Virus record (IMG/VR): IMGVR_UViG_3300042896_000657
Coordinates: 49,981 to 113,980 of that record
DNA length: 64,000 bases
Reading direction: 5' to 3' (one strand)
Source: a virus
The translations under genes were made by a program, and so were the position numbers. Positions within the stretch are counted from its first letter, which is position 1. The number at the start of each line of letters is the position of its first letter. Below are positions 12,993-24,764 of this stretch, piece by piece. Below the pieces are notes generated by a model that had not been told where the DNA came from, did no database searches, and saw nothing but the letters and a program-made list of their open reading frames with translations.

Positions 12993-13196
12993 ATGAGATA
13001 TTATCAGGTAAAAGTTGAGTTTAAAACAGAAGACGATAAAGGTAAAATTAAACGCCAAAGTTATTTATATTTAGTAGATGCTCAATCAGTAACTGAGGCG
13101 GAAGCTAGAACAGTTAAATATCTAAGAGAGCAATCAGAGGAAGATTTTGAAATTAAATCTGCAGGAGCTTCTAAAATTCTAGAAGTTTTACAATAA
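12993..13196 (+). CDS. DUF4494 family protein
   Basis: YLVDAQSVTEAEAR matches the Bacteroidota DUF4494 motif. Confidence 0.75.
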   Translation: MRYYQVKVEFKTEDDKGKIKRQSYLYLVDAQSVTEAEARTVKYLREQSEEDFEIKSAGASKILEVLQ

Positions 13197-13241
13197 TTTA
13201 CATTTTTTAAAATTTACATATATTTATATCAAATAATAATA

Positions 13242-13364
13242 ATGAAACGATTTAGCTTACATATTCAACTTTCGATACCCGCGATTAAAACGCAAGGGGA
13301 AGGCATGGTTTGTAATTGGGATTATAATACCACAACAGGGTTAAAAGATACAGTATTGATATAA
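13242..13364 (+). CDS. putative attenuator leader peptide (40 aa, all 20 amino acids)
   Basis: MKRFSLHIQLSIPAIKTQGEGMVCNWDYNTTTGLKDTVLI*; directly upstream of terminator and tRNA array. Confidence 0.8.
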   Translation: MKRFSLHIQLSIPAIKTQGEGMVCNWDYNTTTGLKDTVLI

Positions 13365-13388
13365 ATAAGTAACTAAAATACATAATCG

Positions 13389-13424
13389 AAAGCCCTGATC
13401 CAAAAAGTCAGGGCTTTTTGTTTT
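13389..13424 (+). terminator. intrinsic terminator of putative attenuator
   Basis: AAAGCCCTGA-tccaaaaag-TCAGGGCTTT-TTGTTTT; CAGGGTT (13336-42) can sequester its 5' arm. Confidence 0.85.
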
Positions 13425-13450
13425 GTCACAATAAAAATTGTACATTTAAA
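13422..13450 (+). promoter_or_regulatory. early-type promoter motif upstream of tRNA array
   Basis: TTTGTCACAAT...TGTACATTTAA, same motif as the 39-44.5 kb promoters. Confidence 0.6.
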
Positions 13451-13456
13451 TATAAT

Positions 13457-13527
13457 GGTTAGGTTGATCAAGGTGGTCGGTAAGTCTGCAAAACTTACTA
13501 TAGTAGGTTCGATACCTATCCTAACCT
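13457..13527 (+). tRNA. tRNA-Cys(GCA)
   Basis: GGTTAGG/CCTAACC acceptor, loop CTGCAAA, U73. Confidence 0.9.
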
Positions 13528-13574
13528 CAGGTGGGTTTAATATTGTTCCCCGTGCGAAAAAAACAATATAAATT

Positions 13575-13647
13575 GGTACTTAAGCTAACTAGGTAGAAGC
13601 GATAGGTTGAAGACCTATAGGATAAGGTTCGATACCTTAAAGTACCA
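13575..13647 (+). tRNA. tRNA-Phe(GAA)
   Basis: Cloverleaf, loop TTGAAGA. Confidence 0.9.
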
Positions 13648-13694
13648 CATGAAAAAACAATTTGAGATGCTTTAGGTTAATTAACCTAATCATC

Positions 13695-13871
13695 ATGAAA
13701 AAGCTAAAAAGAGCAGAAACAAACAAAGAATACAATCATGCATTAAAAAATTATAAATGTTATTGTATGATATGTAATAAAAGGGCAGGAATATATAATG
13801 CATATTGTGGTCCAAAGAGTGAAAAGAAAAATAAAAACTGGAAACAGTATAGAAAAACAAAATGGAAATGA
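13695..13871 (+). CDS. small basic Cys-rich protein within tRNA array
   Basis: CYCMIC...C and NWKQYRKTKWK tail. Confidence 0.55.
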   Translation: MKKLKRAETNKEYNHALKNYKCYCMICNKRAGIYNAYCGPKSEKKNKNWKQYRKTKWK

Positions 13872-13918
13872 AAAAGTATAAACAGTAATACCCTCTAAGT
13901 AAACGAGGGAAATAAAAC

Positions 13919-13991
13919 GCCTTCGTAGCTTAATTGGTAGAGCAATATGCTTTTAACATATGTGGTGACAGTTCGATTCTGTCCGGGGGTA
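13919..13991 (+). tRNA. tRNA-Lys(TTT)
   Basis: Cloverleaf, loop CTTTTAA. Confidence 0.92.
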
Positions 13992-13996
13992 CAAAA

Positions 13997-14069
13997 GTAA
14001 GTGTAGCACAATTGGTAGTGCAGTAGTCTCCAAAACTAAAGGCTATAGGTTCGAGTCCTGTCACTTGCG
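13997..14069 (+). tRNA. tRNA-Trp(CCA)
   Basis: Cloverleaf, loop CTCCAAA, G73. Confidence 0.9.
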
Positions 14070-14093
14070 CAAAAGATTAGTTCTTTGATTTAT

Positions 14094-14582
14094 GGGGCAG
14101 TCAGGAATTGACTGGGCAAAAAAAGTATAAAACAACAAGCAGTGCGATGAATGGTATAGCACTATAAAATGTACGTTCGAACAATAAATGACAACAAGTC
14201 AACTTTCTCTTTCGAAGATGCAATGTCTTTCGTAGGAGCAGATTTCGCAGTAGCTGCTTAATCTATTCAGGTGGTAACCAACCTAGGAACAGAATGATTA
14301 CAAACAGAGCCACGTTCAGAATGCTGCTCTAATACAAGTGAATTCGTCACAGTTGCTGGTAACAATGTTAAAATAGGAACCTGATGGTGGATTAGACCGC
14401 TATAAACGGTCGGCCCTTACTGATCAATATAAGTTAGTAGAATAACGCTGCTGCTAGTATTCTTTAAATTACGTGGGAAGATGCAGCTCTCCCAATGTAG
14501 CTAACCATTATAGATCTAAGCTTGTAATAAATTGTTTTATGGCTGCTGCAACAGGACAAGGGTTCGAATCCCTTCTGCTCCA
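14094..14582 (+). ncRNA. ssrA: tmRNA
   Basis: GGGGCAG/CTGCTCC acceptor with G3-U70, T arm; tag ORF 14190-14261 ending FAVAA* after ATAAAT resume context. Confidence 0.92.
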
Positions 14583-14586
14583 CTAT

Positions 14587-14658
14587 AGTTCCTTAGTTCA
14601 ATGGATAGAACACTTGACTACGAATCATGAAATACAAGTTCGAGTCTTGTAGGAACTA
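14587..14658 (+). tRNA. tRNA-Arg(ACG)
   Basis: Cloverleaf, loop CTACGAA. Confidence 0.88.
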
Positions 14659-14663
14659 CAAAA

Positions 14664-14734
14664 TGCCGTGGGTTGAGGTTTAACAACATTCTCTCATAAG
14701 GAATGTCAATTCGGTTCGATACCGAAACACGGTA
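14664..14734 (+). tRNA. tRNA with CAT anticodon (Met or Ile2), atypical D arm
   Basis: ATTCT-CTCATAA-GGAAT arm, TTCGG/CCGAA T arm. Confidence 0.75.
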
Positions 14735-14787
14735 CTATAAAATTGGATTATCGCGATAATAATCGTATATTGAATTATAATAAGAAA

Positions 14788-14860
14788 CGGGATGTGACAA
14801 AATTGGATACGCGCTCGCTTTGGAAGCGAGAGAATGCAGGTTCGACCCCTGCCATCCCGA
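14788..14860 (+). tRNA. tRNA-Pro(TGG)
   Basis: CGGGATG/CATCCCG, loop TTTGGAA. Confidence 0.9.
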
Positions 14861-14912
14861 CAAAAGTATTGTGAAGTACTATAAATTGATCTTTGACATC
14901 TAGGCTAAATTT

Positions 14913-14984
14913 ACCTCCATAGTTTAATTGGAAGAATAAGGCCCTTCTAAGGCTTTGGTAGTGGTTCAAATCCACTTGGAGGTT
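14913..14984 (+). tRNA. tRNA-Arg(TCT)
   Basis: Cloverleaf, loop CTTCTAA. Confidence 0.88.
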
Positions 14985-14992
14985 CATAAAAT

Positions 14993-15065
14993 GGGCTGTT
15001 GGTATAGATGGCTAACACGGTAGATTTGCATTCTACAGTCCCCGGTTCGAAGCCGGGACGGTCCA
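14993..15065 (+). tRNA. tRNA-Ala(TGC)
   Basis: G3-U70, loop TTTGCAT. Confidence 0.9.
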
Positions 15066-15071
15066 CAATAT

Positions 15072-15143
15072 AGTTCCTTAGCTCAATGGAAGAGCAATGT
15101 CTTTACATGGCAAAGGTTACAAGTTCGAATCTTGTAGGAACTA
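15072..15143 (+). tRNA. tRNA-Val(TAC)
   Basis: Cloverleaf, loop TTTACAT. Confidence 0.88.
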
Positions 15144-15198
15144 CCCACAGGAGGTATTTTCTCTACTTTGTCCTGCGTCCCAATCAAAGTAGTAATTT

Positions 15199-15270
15199 GC
15201 AGGTATAGCACAACGGTTAGTGCTCTGGTCTTCCAAACCGGAGATCTCGGTTCGAATCCGAGTATCTGCT
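15199..15270 (+). tRNA. tRNA-Gly(TCC)
   Basis: Cloverleaf, loop CTTCCAA, U73. Confidence 0.92.
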
Positions 15271-15279
15271 CAATAATAT

Positions 15280-15351
15280 TGACCTATGGTGTAATGGTTA
15301 GCACAACTGGTTTTGAGCCAGTTTGTTTAGGTTCGAATCCTAATAGGTCAT
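15280..15351 (+). tRNA. tRNA-Gln(TTG)
   Basis: U1-A72, loop TTTTGAG. Confidence 0.92.
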
Positions 15352-15435
15352 CAAAGATGAATAGATTACACAAGGTGTTAGTAGCTAGCTAAAGAGTCTC
15401 ATTAGGTACACAAGTCCTAAATTCATCTTTAAATT

Positions 15436-15523
15436 GGAAGATCCCAGTTGACTGAGGTACACGCTCTTGAAAAGCGCTAGGGGTCTGTGAGGGCCTGTAA
15501 GAGTTGGACTCTCTTATCTTCCG
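15436..15523 (+). tRNA. tRNA-Ser(TGA), atypical D and T loops
   Basis: GGAAGAT/ATCTTCC G73, long V arm, loop CTTGAAA, T loop TTGGACT. Confidence 0.78.
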
Positions 15524-15560
15524 CATTCGATGTGTTTGCCGAGCTAGATCGGCTTTATAT

Positions 15561-15635
15561 GGTGTTTATAGTGTTAATGGTTAAGCACGTCAGTTTGTGA
15601 TTCTGATAGTTTGAGTTCGAATCTCAATAAACACC
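15561..15635 (+). tRNA. tRNA-His(GTG)
   Basis: G-1:C73 8-bp acceptor, loop TTGTGAT. Confidence 0.92.
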
Positions 15636-15691
15636 CTCCTCCAATCCTGTGTCGGCTCGAGCAGGTGAAAGTTGAGGTATCGGGCCCTATT

Positions 15692-15777
15692 GGAAAGTAA
15701 AGCAGCCAGGGTTGCTGTCACCGCCTGCTAAGCGAGTGGTACTTTAACGGTATGAATTTCGAGTATTCTACTTTCCG
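15692..15777 (+). tRNA. tRNA-Ser(GCT)
   Basis: GGAAAGT/ACTTTCC G73, long V arm, loop CTGCTAA. Confidence 0.85.
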
Positions 15778-15787
15778 CTGTATAATA

Positions 15788-15869
15788 TATTGGAGTACCA
15801 GTGGAATCTTATACATTCTATATCTGTAGTGGTATGTTGAAAACATGGGTTCGAATCCCATCTCCAATA
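15788..15869 (+). tRNA. non-canonical D-arm-less tRNA-like gene, anticodon TAT (Ile)
   Basis: TATTGGAG/CTCCAATA stem, GGAAT-CTTATAC-ATTCT arm, perfect T arm. Confidence 0.6.
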
Positions 15870-15874
15870 CTATA

Positions 15875-15953
15875 TTGTGACGTATCCACCCTGTCCGATA
15901 CACAGGAGTAAGGTAATTGGTTGAAAATATCGGTTCAAGTCCGATCGTCACAA
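15875..15953 (+). tRNA. non-canonical D-arm-less tRNA-like gene, anticodon GAT (Ile)
   Basis: TTGTGACG/CGTCACAA stem, CCTGT-CCGATAC-ACAGG arm, ATCGG/CCGAT T arm. Confidence 0.6.
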
Positions 15954-15963
15954 CTTTAAAAAT

Positions 15964-16035
15964 GGTCTATTGGTGAAGTGGCTATCATATTACCTTGTCA
16001 CGGTAGAGTAGACGGATCGTAACCGTCATAGACCG
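15964..16035 (+). tRNA. tRNA-Asp(GTC)
   Basis: Cloverleaf, loop TTGTCAC, G73. Confidence 0.88.
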
Positions 16036-16045
16036 CTTAAAATAA

Positions 16046-16117
16046 GTTGAGGTAGCTCAGAGGCAGAGCAGGGTCCTGTTAAGACTCATGTCGAGATATC
16101 GTAATTCTCTCTCAACG
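16046..16117 (+). tRNA. tRNA-Asn(GTT)
   Basis: Cloverleaf, loop CTGTTAA, G73. Confidence 0.88.
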
Positions 16118-16167
16118 CAAATTAAATGTGTATGTCACAGCTAGTGTTCGTACATTGATAATAAGAT

Positions 16168-16301
16168 AGTCAGGTGGCGGAATTGGTAAACGCAAAAGCC
16201 AACTCGTAGTTGGAAGCGAGTTTAAATAAGACAGTCCGAAGTTCGTGGGTGGCATTAGCCTCTGGCACTTTGGCTTACAGGTTCGAATCCTGTCCTGACT
16301 A
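16168..16301 (+). ncRNA. tRNA-Leu-scaffold RNA with variable cargo, copy 1
   Basis: AGTCAGGTGGCGGAATTGGTAAACGC...ACAGGTTCGAATCCTGTCCTGACTA; cargo closed by AAGCCAA/TTGGCTT. Confidence 0.8.
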
Positions 16302-16327
16302 CAAAAAATAAATAAAAATTTAAGATT

Positions 16328-16510
16328 ATGGATTGGATAGAAATTAAAAATCAAAAACCAAAAGATGATAGTTGGGTTTTGATAAAATCTTCTCTAAAGA
16401 ACGTACCGAAATATGAGGTTTGTCATTATGGAAATAATGAGTGGTATATGCCTTGTTATGATGATGCATGTCAAGAGAAGGATATTATTAAATGGTCGTA
16501 CATTGAATAA
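16328..16510 (+). CDS. DUF551-like small phage protein
   Basis: MDWIEIKNQKP...IIKWSYI pattern. Confidence 0.65.
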   Translation: MDWIEIKNQKPKDDSWVLIKSSLKNVPKYEVCHYGNNEWYMPCYDDACQEKDIIKWSYIE

Positions 16511-16516
16511 TAATAC

Positions 16517-16665
16517 AGTCAGGTGGCGGAATGAAGGCACAAAGAGTAATAGTATGTGCTGGATATGGTAGACGCTAAGAAAGAAATTAACTTCGTATCT
16601 AAGTGGAAACACATGGTGGTACACTAAAGCATAATTTCATGCGGGTTCGATTCCTGTCCTGACTA
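16517..16665 (+). ncRNA. tRNA-Leu-scaffold RNA, copy 2 (extra D-loop insertion)
   Basis: Same termini; hairpin GCACA/TGTGC inserted in D loop; cargo closed by GAAATTA/TAATTTC. Confidence 0.75.
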
Positions 16666-16678
16666 CAAGATAATATAT

Positions 16679-16750
16679 TGCGGGGTAGAGCAGAGGTAGC
16701 TCGGAAGGCTCATAACCTTTAGGTCACAGGTTCGAATCCTGTCCCTGCTA
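16679..16750 (+). tRNA. initiator-type tRNA-Met(CAT)
   Basis: 1-72 mismatch, GCGGGGTAGAGCAG body, loop CTCATAA. Confidence 0.85.
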
Positions 16751-16799
16751 CAAATCATAGGATTAATTACCCTATGACTGTCAGGTTCGAAACTGACGA

Positions 16800-16902
16800 T
16801 TGATTATGGTGTATAGGTGCACAGGATGATAAAGTAACAACTGGTAAGTAAGCCGGAAGAGAAATTGACACCAGGAATATGGTTCGAATCCATTTAAATC
16901 AA
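16800..16902 (+). ncRNA. tRNA-like RNA with enlarged central region
   Basis: TTGATT/AATCAA acceptor-like, D-like GGTGTATAGGTGCAC, T arm ATGG-TTCGAAT-CCAT, no clean anticodon arm. Confidence 0.5.
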
Positions 16903-17011
16903 CAAAAGTAGAAGTAAGTATTGAGCAGGCACGCCGTAAAATAGATTCACAACTATCAGAGCTGTTTACTTTCAATATGTGAAAATGTGGGCATATTGAC
17001 TACTTTTAATT

Positions 17012-17095
17012 GGGAGTATCGCACAGCTGGAAAAGGCGCAGCACTGTAAATGCTGTAAGTCGCATGACTTGGAGGTTCGAGTCCTTTTGCTCCCA
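17012..17095 (+). tRNA. tRNA-Tyr(GTA)
   Basis: Long V arm, loop CTGTAAA. Confidence 0.88.
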
Positions 17096-17105
17096 CTAAT
17101 ATAAT

Positions 17106-17177
17106 GCTCCTGTCGTCTAATGGTTAGGATATCTCACTTTCTATGAGATGATTTCGGTTCGAATCCGTGCGGGAGTA
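17106..17177 (+). tRNA. tRNA-Glu(TTC), U at 37
   Basis: Glu-type D arm TCGTCTAATGGTTAGGA; TCTCA-CTTTCTA-TGAGA. Confidence 0.82.
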
Positions 17178-17184
17178 CAAAAGT

Positions 17185-17263
17185 AATTAGGTGGGCGTAA
17201 TGAGGAACGGTTTCCAAGTCCAATAGAATGGTTGCTTATCCTGTTCGAGTCAGGCCCTAATTA
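17185..17263 (+). ncRNA. aberrant tRNA-like RNA (CCA-containing loop)
   Basis: AATTAGG/CCTAATT acceptor, CCTG-TTCGAGT-CAGG T arm, poor D and anticodon arms. Confidence 0.5.
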
Positions 17264-17270
17264 CTTACTT

Positions 17271-17342
17271 GCTCTCAAAGCATTGCAGGCGATGCACCTG
17301 ACTTGTAATCAGGATAAATCGGTTCGATTCCGGTTGAGAGCT
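17271..17342 (+). tRNA. tRNA-Thr(TGT)
   Basis: Cloverleaf, loop CTTGTAA. Confidence 0.9.
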
Positions 17343-17424
17343 CAAAAAAGGTAAAAGAAATTTGGCCTAGCAAAACAACGTTTGTATATTGATAATATAG
17401 AAACAAATACGTTCTTTGAAAATA

Positions 17425-18305
17425 TTGTTATCCATTTAAGTTACATTCGACGCGAAACAGTCCGGCTGCCGATAAGATTGTAGGTTGATAAATAACACTC
17501 GGCGGCCTATAGTCGTTAAATAAACCGTGAAAGCGGTATAAAGTGAATTAGTTTGACTGAACTAGTTTGCGCATCGTGAGATGTTAAGTAGGCAAGCAGG
17601 ATATCATTTATCCTTTAGTACCGAGGGTGACACTGTAGGGAAAGTGGATAGATGATTAGGCGATGTGGGTCGTCTGATTGAGCTCGGAAGAGCAATAAGA
17701 ATAACCTGTAGAATATATGCAAGAAATATACCTCCAAGTATGTAATTGCGTTATTCAATATAAGAGAAATCTTAAAATCGAAAGGTAAGATGATGTACAG
17801 GTGGTGCTGTTATTGTCCTCAAAATTAATCTACCAAGGTTTTTATTGAGAAGATTTCTTAAAGTATGGAGGTAGGGATACTTCAGAGAGTAGTCGAGTAT
17901 TTTGTTGTTCAAAAGATAACAAAGCTTAGGGTAAGCCACTACTTTCATAATCCATAAGTCTAAACTAAATTTGCTACTATGATGCAATATCTAAAATCAA
18001 ATTAAGCTTAAGCGCTTACCAGCTACGGACGAAAGATGCTTACATAGTACTGGGTTGTCCAGTGCCATTTAAGACCGCAAGTCAAGAATGATTCTTTTGA
18101 AAGACTTATAGTACCGCAAGTACGAATCAGGCTCGCAAGCTTGAATAGGGGTGAGTAGGAGGAGAGTAGTCCAATACAAGTAGCTCTAAGAGTGGTTCAC
18201 TTAAATAACCAGCATTGTCAGAGTAGGGATCAAAAGTTCCTGGATAAGAGAAGAATAAATAATGTCTCAAAAGCTTTGACGTCAAGACTGTAATCTCAGG
18301 TCTTT
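17425..18305 (+). ncRNA. large structured ncRNA, GOLLD-like
   Basis: About 880 nt without a credible ORF, GC-richer, many GNRA hairpins (GTGA, GAAA, GCAA), 3' end GACTGTAATCTCAGGTC, embedded in a phage tRNA array. Confidence 0.7.
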
Positions 18306-18309
18306 TTAT

Positions 18310-18389
18310 GCCTCGGTGGTGGAATTGGTAGTCACGCTGGCTTTAAGCGTCAGTCCGAAAGGGTGAGGGTTCGAGTCCCTCCTGGGGTA
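18310..18389 (+). tRNA. tRNA-Leu(TAA)
   Basis: Class II cloverleaf, loop TTTAAGC, A73. Confidence 0.88.
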
Positions 18390-18396
18390 CTAATAT

Positions 18397-18541
18397 TGTA
18401 GTGTGATGAAACTGGCAGACATTGCCCTCCTGTCTCGGGGGTGAGGATCAACTGATAAACGTAGGATAGATGGGTTGACCACAAGCTAGCAATGTCCTAC
18501 AGCTAAAGTCCTCGTGAGTGGTTCGAATCCCTCCACTACAG
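18397..18541 (+). ncRNA. tRNA-like RNA, GTC-centred loop, about 73-nt pseudoknotted variable arm
   Basis: TGTAGTG/CACTACA G73; GCCCTC-CTGTCTC-GGGGGT; V arm closed by GAGGA/TCCTC. Confidence 0.7.
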
Positions 18542-18549
18542 CAAAATAT

Positions 18550-18652
18550 AGTCAGGTGGCGTAATGGTAACGTGTCACCCTCCAGGTTGAGATAACAGCT
18601 AATGGCACTCTGTATGATAAAGAAGATACAGGTTCGAATCCTGTCCTGACTA
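18550..18652 (+). ncRNA. tRNA-Leu-scaffold RNA, copy 3
   Basis: Same conserved termini, unrelated cargo. Confidence 0.75.
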
Positions 18653-18673
18653 CAATTGATTAATGGAAACTTT

Positions 18674-18747
18674 ACCTGGGTGGCGGAACTGGCAGACGCA
18701 GCGGCCTTAGAAGTCGTAAGGTGAGGGTTCGAATCCCTCTCTGGGTA
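18674..18747 (+). tRNA. tRNA-Leu(TAG) with short variable region
   Basis: Leu D arm, loop CTTAGAA, only AAGGT between anticodon and T arms. Confidence 0.82.
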
Positions 18748-18766
18748 CTATATTAAATTTAATGTT

Positions 18767-24523: not shown

Positions 24524-24764
24524 AGAATATACAGATGGATTTGAAAATTATGATCAGCGTATAGCTAATCTACTATTATTTATTAAACAACAAAATGCAC
24601 AAGCGCTTCGAGAAGAAGCATTTATAAATTGTCACAATAAAAATATTACATTTAAAACGAAAAAGAAACACAAATCAAAAGCTCAAGTAAGGAGAGAGCA
24701 ATTACAAAAATTACAAAAACAAGTGCCCAAAATGGGTAACGTTTCAAAATTTTTTAACTTTTAA
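24510..24764 (+). CDS. hypothetical protein
   Basis: ORF. Confidence 0.6.
   Translation: MIKNEEYTDGFENYDQRIANLLLFIKQQNAQALREEAFINCHNKNITFKTKKKHKSKAQVRREQLQKLQKQVPKMGNVSKFFNF

Follow-up and report, generated by a model that had tools for sequence, protein, structure and literature searches.

A candidate leader-peptide attenuator with array-matched composition at the head of a phage tRNA, tmRNA and GOLLD RNA array

The locus described here raises the question of how a phage might adjust the output of its own tRNA genes, the timing and dosing of which are, to our knowledge, essentially unknown. Why phages carry such genes is itself debated, with codon compensation and escape from tRNA-targeting defences as the explanations put forward (PMC10264068, PMC11464382). 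The stretch of DNA that was analysed, hereafter the window, comprises the final 64 kb of a 113,980-bp IMG/VR virus record that was judged 67% complete; lake-water metagenomes are the main source of related DNA. On the plus strand of the window, a gene for a DUF4494 protein ends at position 13196, a short open reading frame (ORF) follows at 13242–13364, and a long array of RNA genes starts at 13457. The initial annotation had interpreted the ORF as a leader peptide containing all 20 amino acids, which would sense the whole tRNA pool and control the array by transcription attenuation.

The unit that is proposed to be regulated extends from 13457 to 18748 on the plus strand and consists of 20 tRNAs called by ARAGORN, additional unusual tRNAs, a tmRNA and a GOLLD RNA. 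The first tRNA is tRNA-Cys, with its start at 13457, shortly past the terminator described below, as annotated. The tmRNA gene (14094–14585, plus strand; Rfam, 64.5 bits) was not called by ARAGORN in the window. An open frame within it (14169–14261) ends in ADFAVAA, resembling the tag peptides read by ARAGORN in the related loci L005–L008. The GOLLD RNA (17885–18302, plus strand; Rfam RF02032, 262 bits) is full-length and is located between tRNA-Thr and tRNA-Leu. A Ser/Ile/Ile block at 15637–15953 was not called by ARAGORN, and the same place in the close relative L004 is occupied by normal Ser-GCU, Ile-GAU and Ile-UAU genes; two more tRNA-like genes with long insertions lie at 18397–18652 (Rfam, 49 bits at 18550–18652). 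We also observed a recurring structured element that adjoins tRNAs, starts with GTCAGGTGG(T/C)G and ends in a tRNA-like T arm; copies lie at about 16160, 16515 and 18550 in the window, and at L005:6560–6900, L010:6420–6640 and L011:6480–6716 in relatives. Further leaders were looked for inside the tRNA array of the window, and none was found. Matches in a cultured phage collection were to tRNAs only, and no cultured relative was found there. Contigs from three metatranscriptome runs cover the tmRNA region and parts of the upstream genes, none of them covers the leader, and they are uninformative either way.

The ORF has 40 codons and a stop codon, and its translation places all 20 amino acids within codons 1–28, in agreement with the initial annotation. 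The isoacceptor codon pairs AGC+TCG, TTA+CTT, ATT+ATA and GGG+GGC that had been noted, and an internal ATG, are all present. The shortest stretch of the leader with all 20 amino acids is 26 residues long, which is the minimum over the six frames of the 64-kb window; the runner-up has 32. Among second-order Markov copies of the window, 6 of 150 runs reached 26 or fewer, equivalent to a p value of about 0.04 per 64 kb with the position unspecified. The all-20 stretch is unremarkable as an anonymous oddity in a window and very rare at one pre-specified place. The leader is also rich in rare codons, as had been proposed from their appearance: for 12 of its 39 codons, the share within the synonymous family is below 10%; the codon score has z = −3.55, and a score as low as that of codons 2–28 is reached by only 0.17% of 27-codon gene windows. 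Codons 2–28 form the proposed sensing zone (13245–13325, plus strand), which holds all 20 amino acids and nine very rare codons; CGA, AGC, CTT, TCG, CCC, GCG, ACG, GGG and GGC all occur at leader codons 3 to 21. Rare codons are enriched in every lineage (z = −3.55, −3.8, −4.3 and −2.6), placing the codon usage of the leader in the worst 0.2–0.5% of the genome in each case. This could stem from the absence of codon selection and not from selection for slowness. That the rare codons build hairpins within the ORF was considered and rejected: the candidate 1:2 or pause hairpins at 13269–13304 and 13306–13332 are not significant (z −0.6 to −1.7) and are not conserved. A 9-mer common to the leader and to tRNA T-loops, TTCGATACC, was dismissed as chance-expected by estimate. 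The leader contains no tandem regulatory codons, each amino acid occurring one to three times and never in runs, and the peptide matches no Pfam or PHROG family.

Through the neighbouring DUF4494 protein we collected 19 related phage loci, and four DNA copies of the leader were obtained in total (window, L004, L012 and L134). L004, with a neighbour protein 96% identical to that of the window, carries the same leader with three amino-acid changes. In L012, where the neighbour protein is 57% identical, the corresponding place holds a 40-codon ORF, and promoter motif and terminator are the same as well. The version in L134, an ENA contig, has 43 codons, is set apart from that of the window by three indels of 3 nt each, and fits all 20 amino acids into 30 codons; the L134 locus stops 17 nt past the stop codon, and the terminator was compared among the window, L004 and L012. 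The ORF starts with ATGAAA in all four DNA copies and is the sole frame that is open in all of them. Protein and profile searches yielded 28 distinct natural peptides of 40–43 residues, belonging to five or six sub-clades. Not every homologous locus carries such a leader: in the more distant relatives L005–L011, tRNA arrays are located behind the same DUF4494 gene with other small genes between, and the leader is absent, against the expectation of the earlier proposal. Small lipoprotein-like ORFs precede the tRNAs at L010:6260–6420 and L009:7548–7700; they have signal peptides, are not homologous to the leader and were rejected as leaders. In the L010 ORF, Thr codons form a run of eight, and a tRNA-Thr, about 230 nt away, is the first tRNA to be called downstream; this ORF is probably unrelated to attenuation. 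Additional searches extended this collection little. A peptide-alignment scan of viral contigs returned only the contig of L004, and the same scan of metagenome contigs returned no match; a DNA pattern for GMVCNWDY matched L134 and one chance sequence. Scans of genome contigs for the leader gave no match, viral scans for leaders of the P0007/P0009 type and the L012 type gave nothing new, and the 15-mer ACAGGGYTAAAAGAT and a gapped pattern gave chance matches only. The in-frame 3-nt indels and the sole conserved open frame suggest that the leader ORF is genuinely coding and would be translated. It has no Shine-Dalgarno sequence, which would not be expected in the Bacteroidota-type hosts suggested by the DUF4494 protein and the promoter boxes.

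The ORF is followed by a strong intrinsic terminator (13388–13427, plus strand), as the initial annotation had claimed. It consists of a stem of 12 bp with a 7-nt loop (13388–13418; −17.5 kcal/mol, z = −5.1) and a U-tract. The proposed antiterminator was recovered as well, as a hairpin across the stop codon (13336–13397, plus strand). In this hairpin, 13336–13342 pairs with 13391–13397, one base from the originally proposed 13392, and encloses the helices GAU/AUC (13347–13349 with 13385–13387) and GUAUU/AAUAC (13353–13357 with 13377–13381). Folded with the 3' arm of the terminator omitted, it reaches −13.2 kcal/mol (z = −3.3) and is weaker than the terminator (−13.2 versus −17.5 kcal/mol); the energies of the 2:3 and 3:4 hairpins of trp are of similar order. 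Comparable upstream pairing was found at about 2 of 24 other terminators (about 8%) in related DNA. The equivalent antiterminator of L012 (−14.7 kcal/mol, z = −3.3) has the same outer helix, and its inner helices are formed from different sequence. The pairing of both hairpins is thus conserved in a divergent relative despite a diverged ORF, as the attenuator proposal had predicted.

To model the effect of translation, we hid 30 nt around the A site of a ribosome and refolded the RNA that had emerged before the 3' arm of the terminator. The antiterminator stayed intact with the A site at codons 2–27, was partly lost at codon 28 and was abolished at codons 29–38/39, which agrees with the stalling positions originally envisaged. 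The zone in which the antiterminator remains free (codons 2–27) is identical in the window and L012. A ribosome at the stop codon hides only the inner helices; the outer 7 bp can still pair in the model, although their closing around such a ribosome would be sterically unlikely. With no ribosome on the leader the antiterminator forms in the folding, so the default would be read-through, and efficient translation would lead to termination.

Transcription of the leader would start from a promoter-like motif, P1 (13207–13228, plus strand), with a −7 box of the TAnnTTTA type at 13219–13226 and the ATG 13 nt downstream. The existence of an upstream promoter motif had been noted before, and all 22 nt are invariant in the window, L004, L012 and L134. 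Similar boxes precede other genes of the same genome, and the 16-mer TTTACATATATTTATA of P1 recurs 4–30 nt ahead of the start codon in numerous unrelated genes of AT-rich viral contigs (L151–L181). This 16-mer is likely a widespread promoter consensus of Bacteroidota-type phages, and we infer that P1 is a promoter. The 16-mer often follows directly after the U-tract of a terminator.

A second promoter-like or operator-like motif, P2 (13423–13453, plus strand), is found in the window and L004 only, placed after the terminator and ahead of tRNA-Cys. It is about 25 nt long (TTGTCACAATAAAAAT..TACATTT), contains an imperfect inverted repeat as judged by eye, and occurs in three copies in the genome (13423–13447, window 24629–24653, and C1:22858, 8 nt before an ATG). 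P2 is probably a promoter, and a candidate for a phage-specific promoter or operator. The caveat that a second promoter follows the terminator therefore applies to the window and L004, where the attenuator would govern only part of the transcription of the array, and does not apply to L012, which has no P2. The first tRNA of L012 (Rfam, 42 bits) starts 2 nt past the U-tract, leaving no room for a promoter, so it would be expressed only by read-through of the terminator, and some antitermination device would be called for.

The comparison of the window with L012 also indicates what has been kept at this locus. Over codons 1–28, 28 of 84 nt are identical, which is random-like, and the differences are distributed evenly over the three codon positions; the length of the ORF is 40 codons in both. 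Identity amounts to 22 of 22 nt in P1, 15 of 16 nt in the 5' strand of the antiterminator and 28 of 32 nt in the terminator, compared with 72% for the DUF4494 gene. The 5' strand of the antiterminator is located within the C-terminal part of the ORF, and the remainder of the ORF has diverged in L012. The codon before GGG is ACA, ACA and TCA in the three readable lineages, and the residue in the variant P0003 is Pro, which fits a constraint on nucleotides over one on residues. The last four residues are hypervariable across the variants. From these comparisons, what appears to be kept is that the ORF is translated and over what length, together with the RNA elements, and not the peptide; such a pattern is more in keeping with a regulatory upstream ORF than with a protein gene.

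This pattern bears on the alternative that survives best, although we regard it as rather unlikely: the ORF could be an ordinary small phage gene for a trans-acting protein of 40 amino acids with its own promoter, in which case the hairpin would simply terminate this gene together with the operon upstream, P2 and leaky read-through would supply the transcripts of the array, and the composition and the pairing would be coincidental. Within the close clade the N-terminal 28 residues are indeed well conserved, and include an NWDY motif shared with the P0009 clade, as would be expected of a protein gene, whereas between clades the peptide has diverged and the promoter, antiterminator strand and terminator have been kept. 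The existence of P2 would provide such a gene arrangement with a promoter for the array, and the lack of promoter room ahead of the first tRNA in L012 argues against it. A coincidental pairing is made plausible by the roughly 8% of other terminators with comparable upstream pairing, and a coincidental composition by the loss of all-20 coverage in many variants; the occurrence of unrelated small genes at the same position in other relatives is likewise what this explanation predicts. It is opposed by the extreme codon usage in all lineages, by a peptide that lacks any family match, and by a match to the composition of the array in two clades with sequence-unrelated leaders.

The composition of the leader requires a distinction between covering all 20 amino acids and matching the array. 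Coverage of all 20, which the initial annotation had treated as the essential and maintained property, is not maintained: 13 of the 28 natural variants lack one to three amino acids, and selection for it was rejected on these grounds. Single-residue variants of the window peptide lose an amino acid through E20Q (in at least three backgrounds), C24Y or R3Q. The leader of the P0009 clade lacks Ala and Cys, with P0009 itself also lacking Gly, and that of the L012 clade lacks Glu, with 2/3 of its variants also lacking Tyr. The match with the tRNAs of the array is closer. In 27 codons, the zone of the window samples 22 of the 23 tRNA species that the array encodes, including both Leu and both Ile isoacceptors; the unusual genes at 15637–15953, with normal homologues in L004, contribute Ser-GCU and both Ile tRNAs to the count of 23. 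Arg-UCU is the only species of the array that is missed, and TCG is the only codon of the zone for which the array lacks a decoder. Gene windows sample on average 13.6 species (sd 1.9, maximum 20, n = 8,641), and all six-frame windows in the 114-kb genome with at least 21 species are the leader itself.

The L012 array is visible as ten tRNAs up to the end of the contig, and the leader zone samples all 10 of their isotypes. Of its 27 residues, 23 belong to these isotypes, and Leu, Thr, Gly, Asp, Glu and Pro are absent. A match as good was found in 0 of 16,600 protein windows and in 5 of 31,665 six-frame windows. The 12-residue tail that forms the antiterminator carries Leu, Thr, Gly, Asp and Pro, all absent from the zone. 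By synteny, the L012 array lacks tRNAs for Pro, Gly, Asp, Met, Arg and Ala at the places where they occur in the window; the first four agree with the leader, and Arg and Ala (and Cys) nonetheless occur in it. Genes for Glu, Thr and Leu tRNAs could follow past the end of the contig according to the synteny, which would weaken the match. Taken with these limits, with tests that were framed after the data had been seen and an L012 array that is incomplete, the evidence that the composition of the leader tracks the tRNA array is suggestive. The all-20 coverage in the window would then be a consequence of an array that serves all 20 amino acids and not a strictly kept property.

The composition also bears on a second alternative, which we consider improbable, namely a generic attenuator responding to translation stress, which would report only on whether ribosomes keep up, like the leader ORFs that respond to antibiotics, with a composition that is not matched to the array and an all-20 stretch that arose by accident in a fast-evolving, unselected ORF. 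Such an attenuator would have the same hairpin geometry and the same free zone as an array-matched one, and would explain the lack of codon runs and the loss of singleton residues in natural variants; there is a precedent in PA5471.1-armZ, in which any stalling relieves termination (PMC13041342). Against it, the roster statistics of two unrelated leader sequences are hard to obtain by accident, and six common amino acids are wholly absent from the zone of L012. A non-coding 5' leader or small RNA that ends at the terminator, with a frame open by chance, is a very remote prospect: the codon usage that looks non-coding, the local G+C content of 38% compared with 29% for the window, and the missing Shine-Dalgarno sequence (not expected in the hosts proposed above) are outweighed by a frame that is open for 40–43 codons in all lineages despite saturated divergence, an estimated chance of about 0.04 for 39 stop-free codons at such composition, indels that are all of 3 nt, the shared ATGAAA start, the lack of significant and conserved hairpins within the ORF, and the lack of an Rfam family above threshold.

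We therefore favour, with a probability of about 0.55, the reading that a ribosome-mediated leader-peptide transcription attenuator with an array-matched leader heads the tRNA/tmRNA/GOLLD array, and that the all-20 coverage follows from this match. According to the sequence comparisons and folding models, P1 would start a transcript with a very short 5' leader, of which a ribosome would translate the 40-codon ORF. On reaching codons 29–40 or the stop codon, the ribosome would cover the 5' strand and the inner helices of the antiterminator, the terminator would form, and transcription would end ahead of the first tRNA. A ribosome held up at codons 2–27/28, or one that was never loaded, would allow the antiterminator (13336–13397) to form first, and RNA polymerase would read into the array. 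The rare-codon zone, by sampling nearly all species of the array, could then act as a feedback gauge in which slow decoding leads to more phage tRNAs and tmRNA.

The element would thus probably raise the output of tRNAs upon slowing of the ribosome. The stall-sensing interpretation of the initial annotation is retained as far as the free antiterminator at codons 2–27/28 is concerned; its other part, that the loss of any single charged tRNA would suffice, is doubtful, because each amino acid is sampled once or twice and without runs. The wider proposal, that phage arrays are placed under roster-like leader peptides that poll nearly every tRNA species supplied and so act as sensors of the whole tRNA pool, is put forward tentatively. 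We are similarly cautious about its corollary, that a shortage caused by codon-usage mismatch, host shut-off or tRNA-cleaving nucleases would open the terminator and so increase the supply of replacement tRNAs and of tmRNA. A link to anti-phage defence by anticodon nucleases is speculation.

If true, the regulatory logic would be simple, in which a leader ORF surveys the available tRNAs and controls the way into the array. Leader-peptide attenuation would no longer be limited to single amino acids but would reach the entire decoding set, and there would be a class of attenuators that regulates the decoding machinery and not metabolism. For annotation, the corresponding signature would be a promoter, an ORF of about 40 rare-codon-rich codons, an antiterminator and terminator, and then the first tRNA.

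The architecture is that of known leader-peptide attenuators, and its application to a tRNA array was not found described; in the literature searched we found no account of leader-peptide control of tRNA genes. The leaders of amino-acid operons (thr, with Thr and Ile; ilvGMEDA, with Ile, Leu and Val; trpL, hisL and pheL) share the short ORF with its own promoter and the terminator before the regulated genes. Their antiterminators likewise extend over the end of the ORF, are less stable than the terminator and are masked once a ribosome has reached the stop codon, as the present one would be. In contrast to those operons, the genes under the proposed control are phage RNA genes (tRNAs, tmRNA and GOLLD) and not biosynthetic enzymes, and the leader samples some 22 tRNA species, each once or twice, without tandem codons or a convincing 1:2 pause hairpin. 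The Rfam model Thr_leader (RF00506) scores 27.7 bits in the window and 23.6 bits in L012 against a cut-off of 55, with the match confined to the terminator end. T-boxes bind one uncharged tRNA directly and without translation, and control genes for synthetases or amino-acid metabolism. They resemble the present element in coupling a read-out of tRNA status to the choice between terminator and antiterminator; Rfam detected no T-box in the window or L012.

In Anabaena, a long tRNA array, the trn L-array, is kept in reserve and induced upon impaired translation (PMC8421152). It resembles the behaviour proposed for the phage array and differs in its control, which is exerted at the promoter by the RHH repressor TrcR through tandem 9-nt direct repeats that span the −10 box and the start site (PMC8421152, PMC10272220); the words leader, attenuat- and terminator are all absent from the text of PMC8421152. 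PA5471.1-armZ of Pseudomonas aeruginosa is similar in that it senses translation in general and not one amino acid: full translation of its leader results in the terminator, and any stall, including one due to a defect in the addition of CCA to tRNAs, results in read-through (PMC13041342). Its leader has 13 codons and no roster-like composition, and its output is a regulator of drug efflux, whereas the output of the phage element would be translation machinery, which would close a feedback loop.
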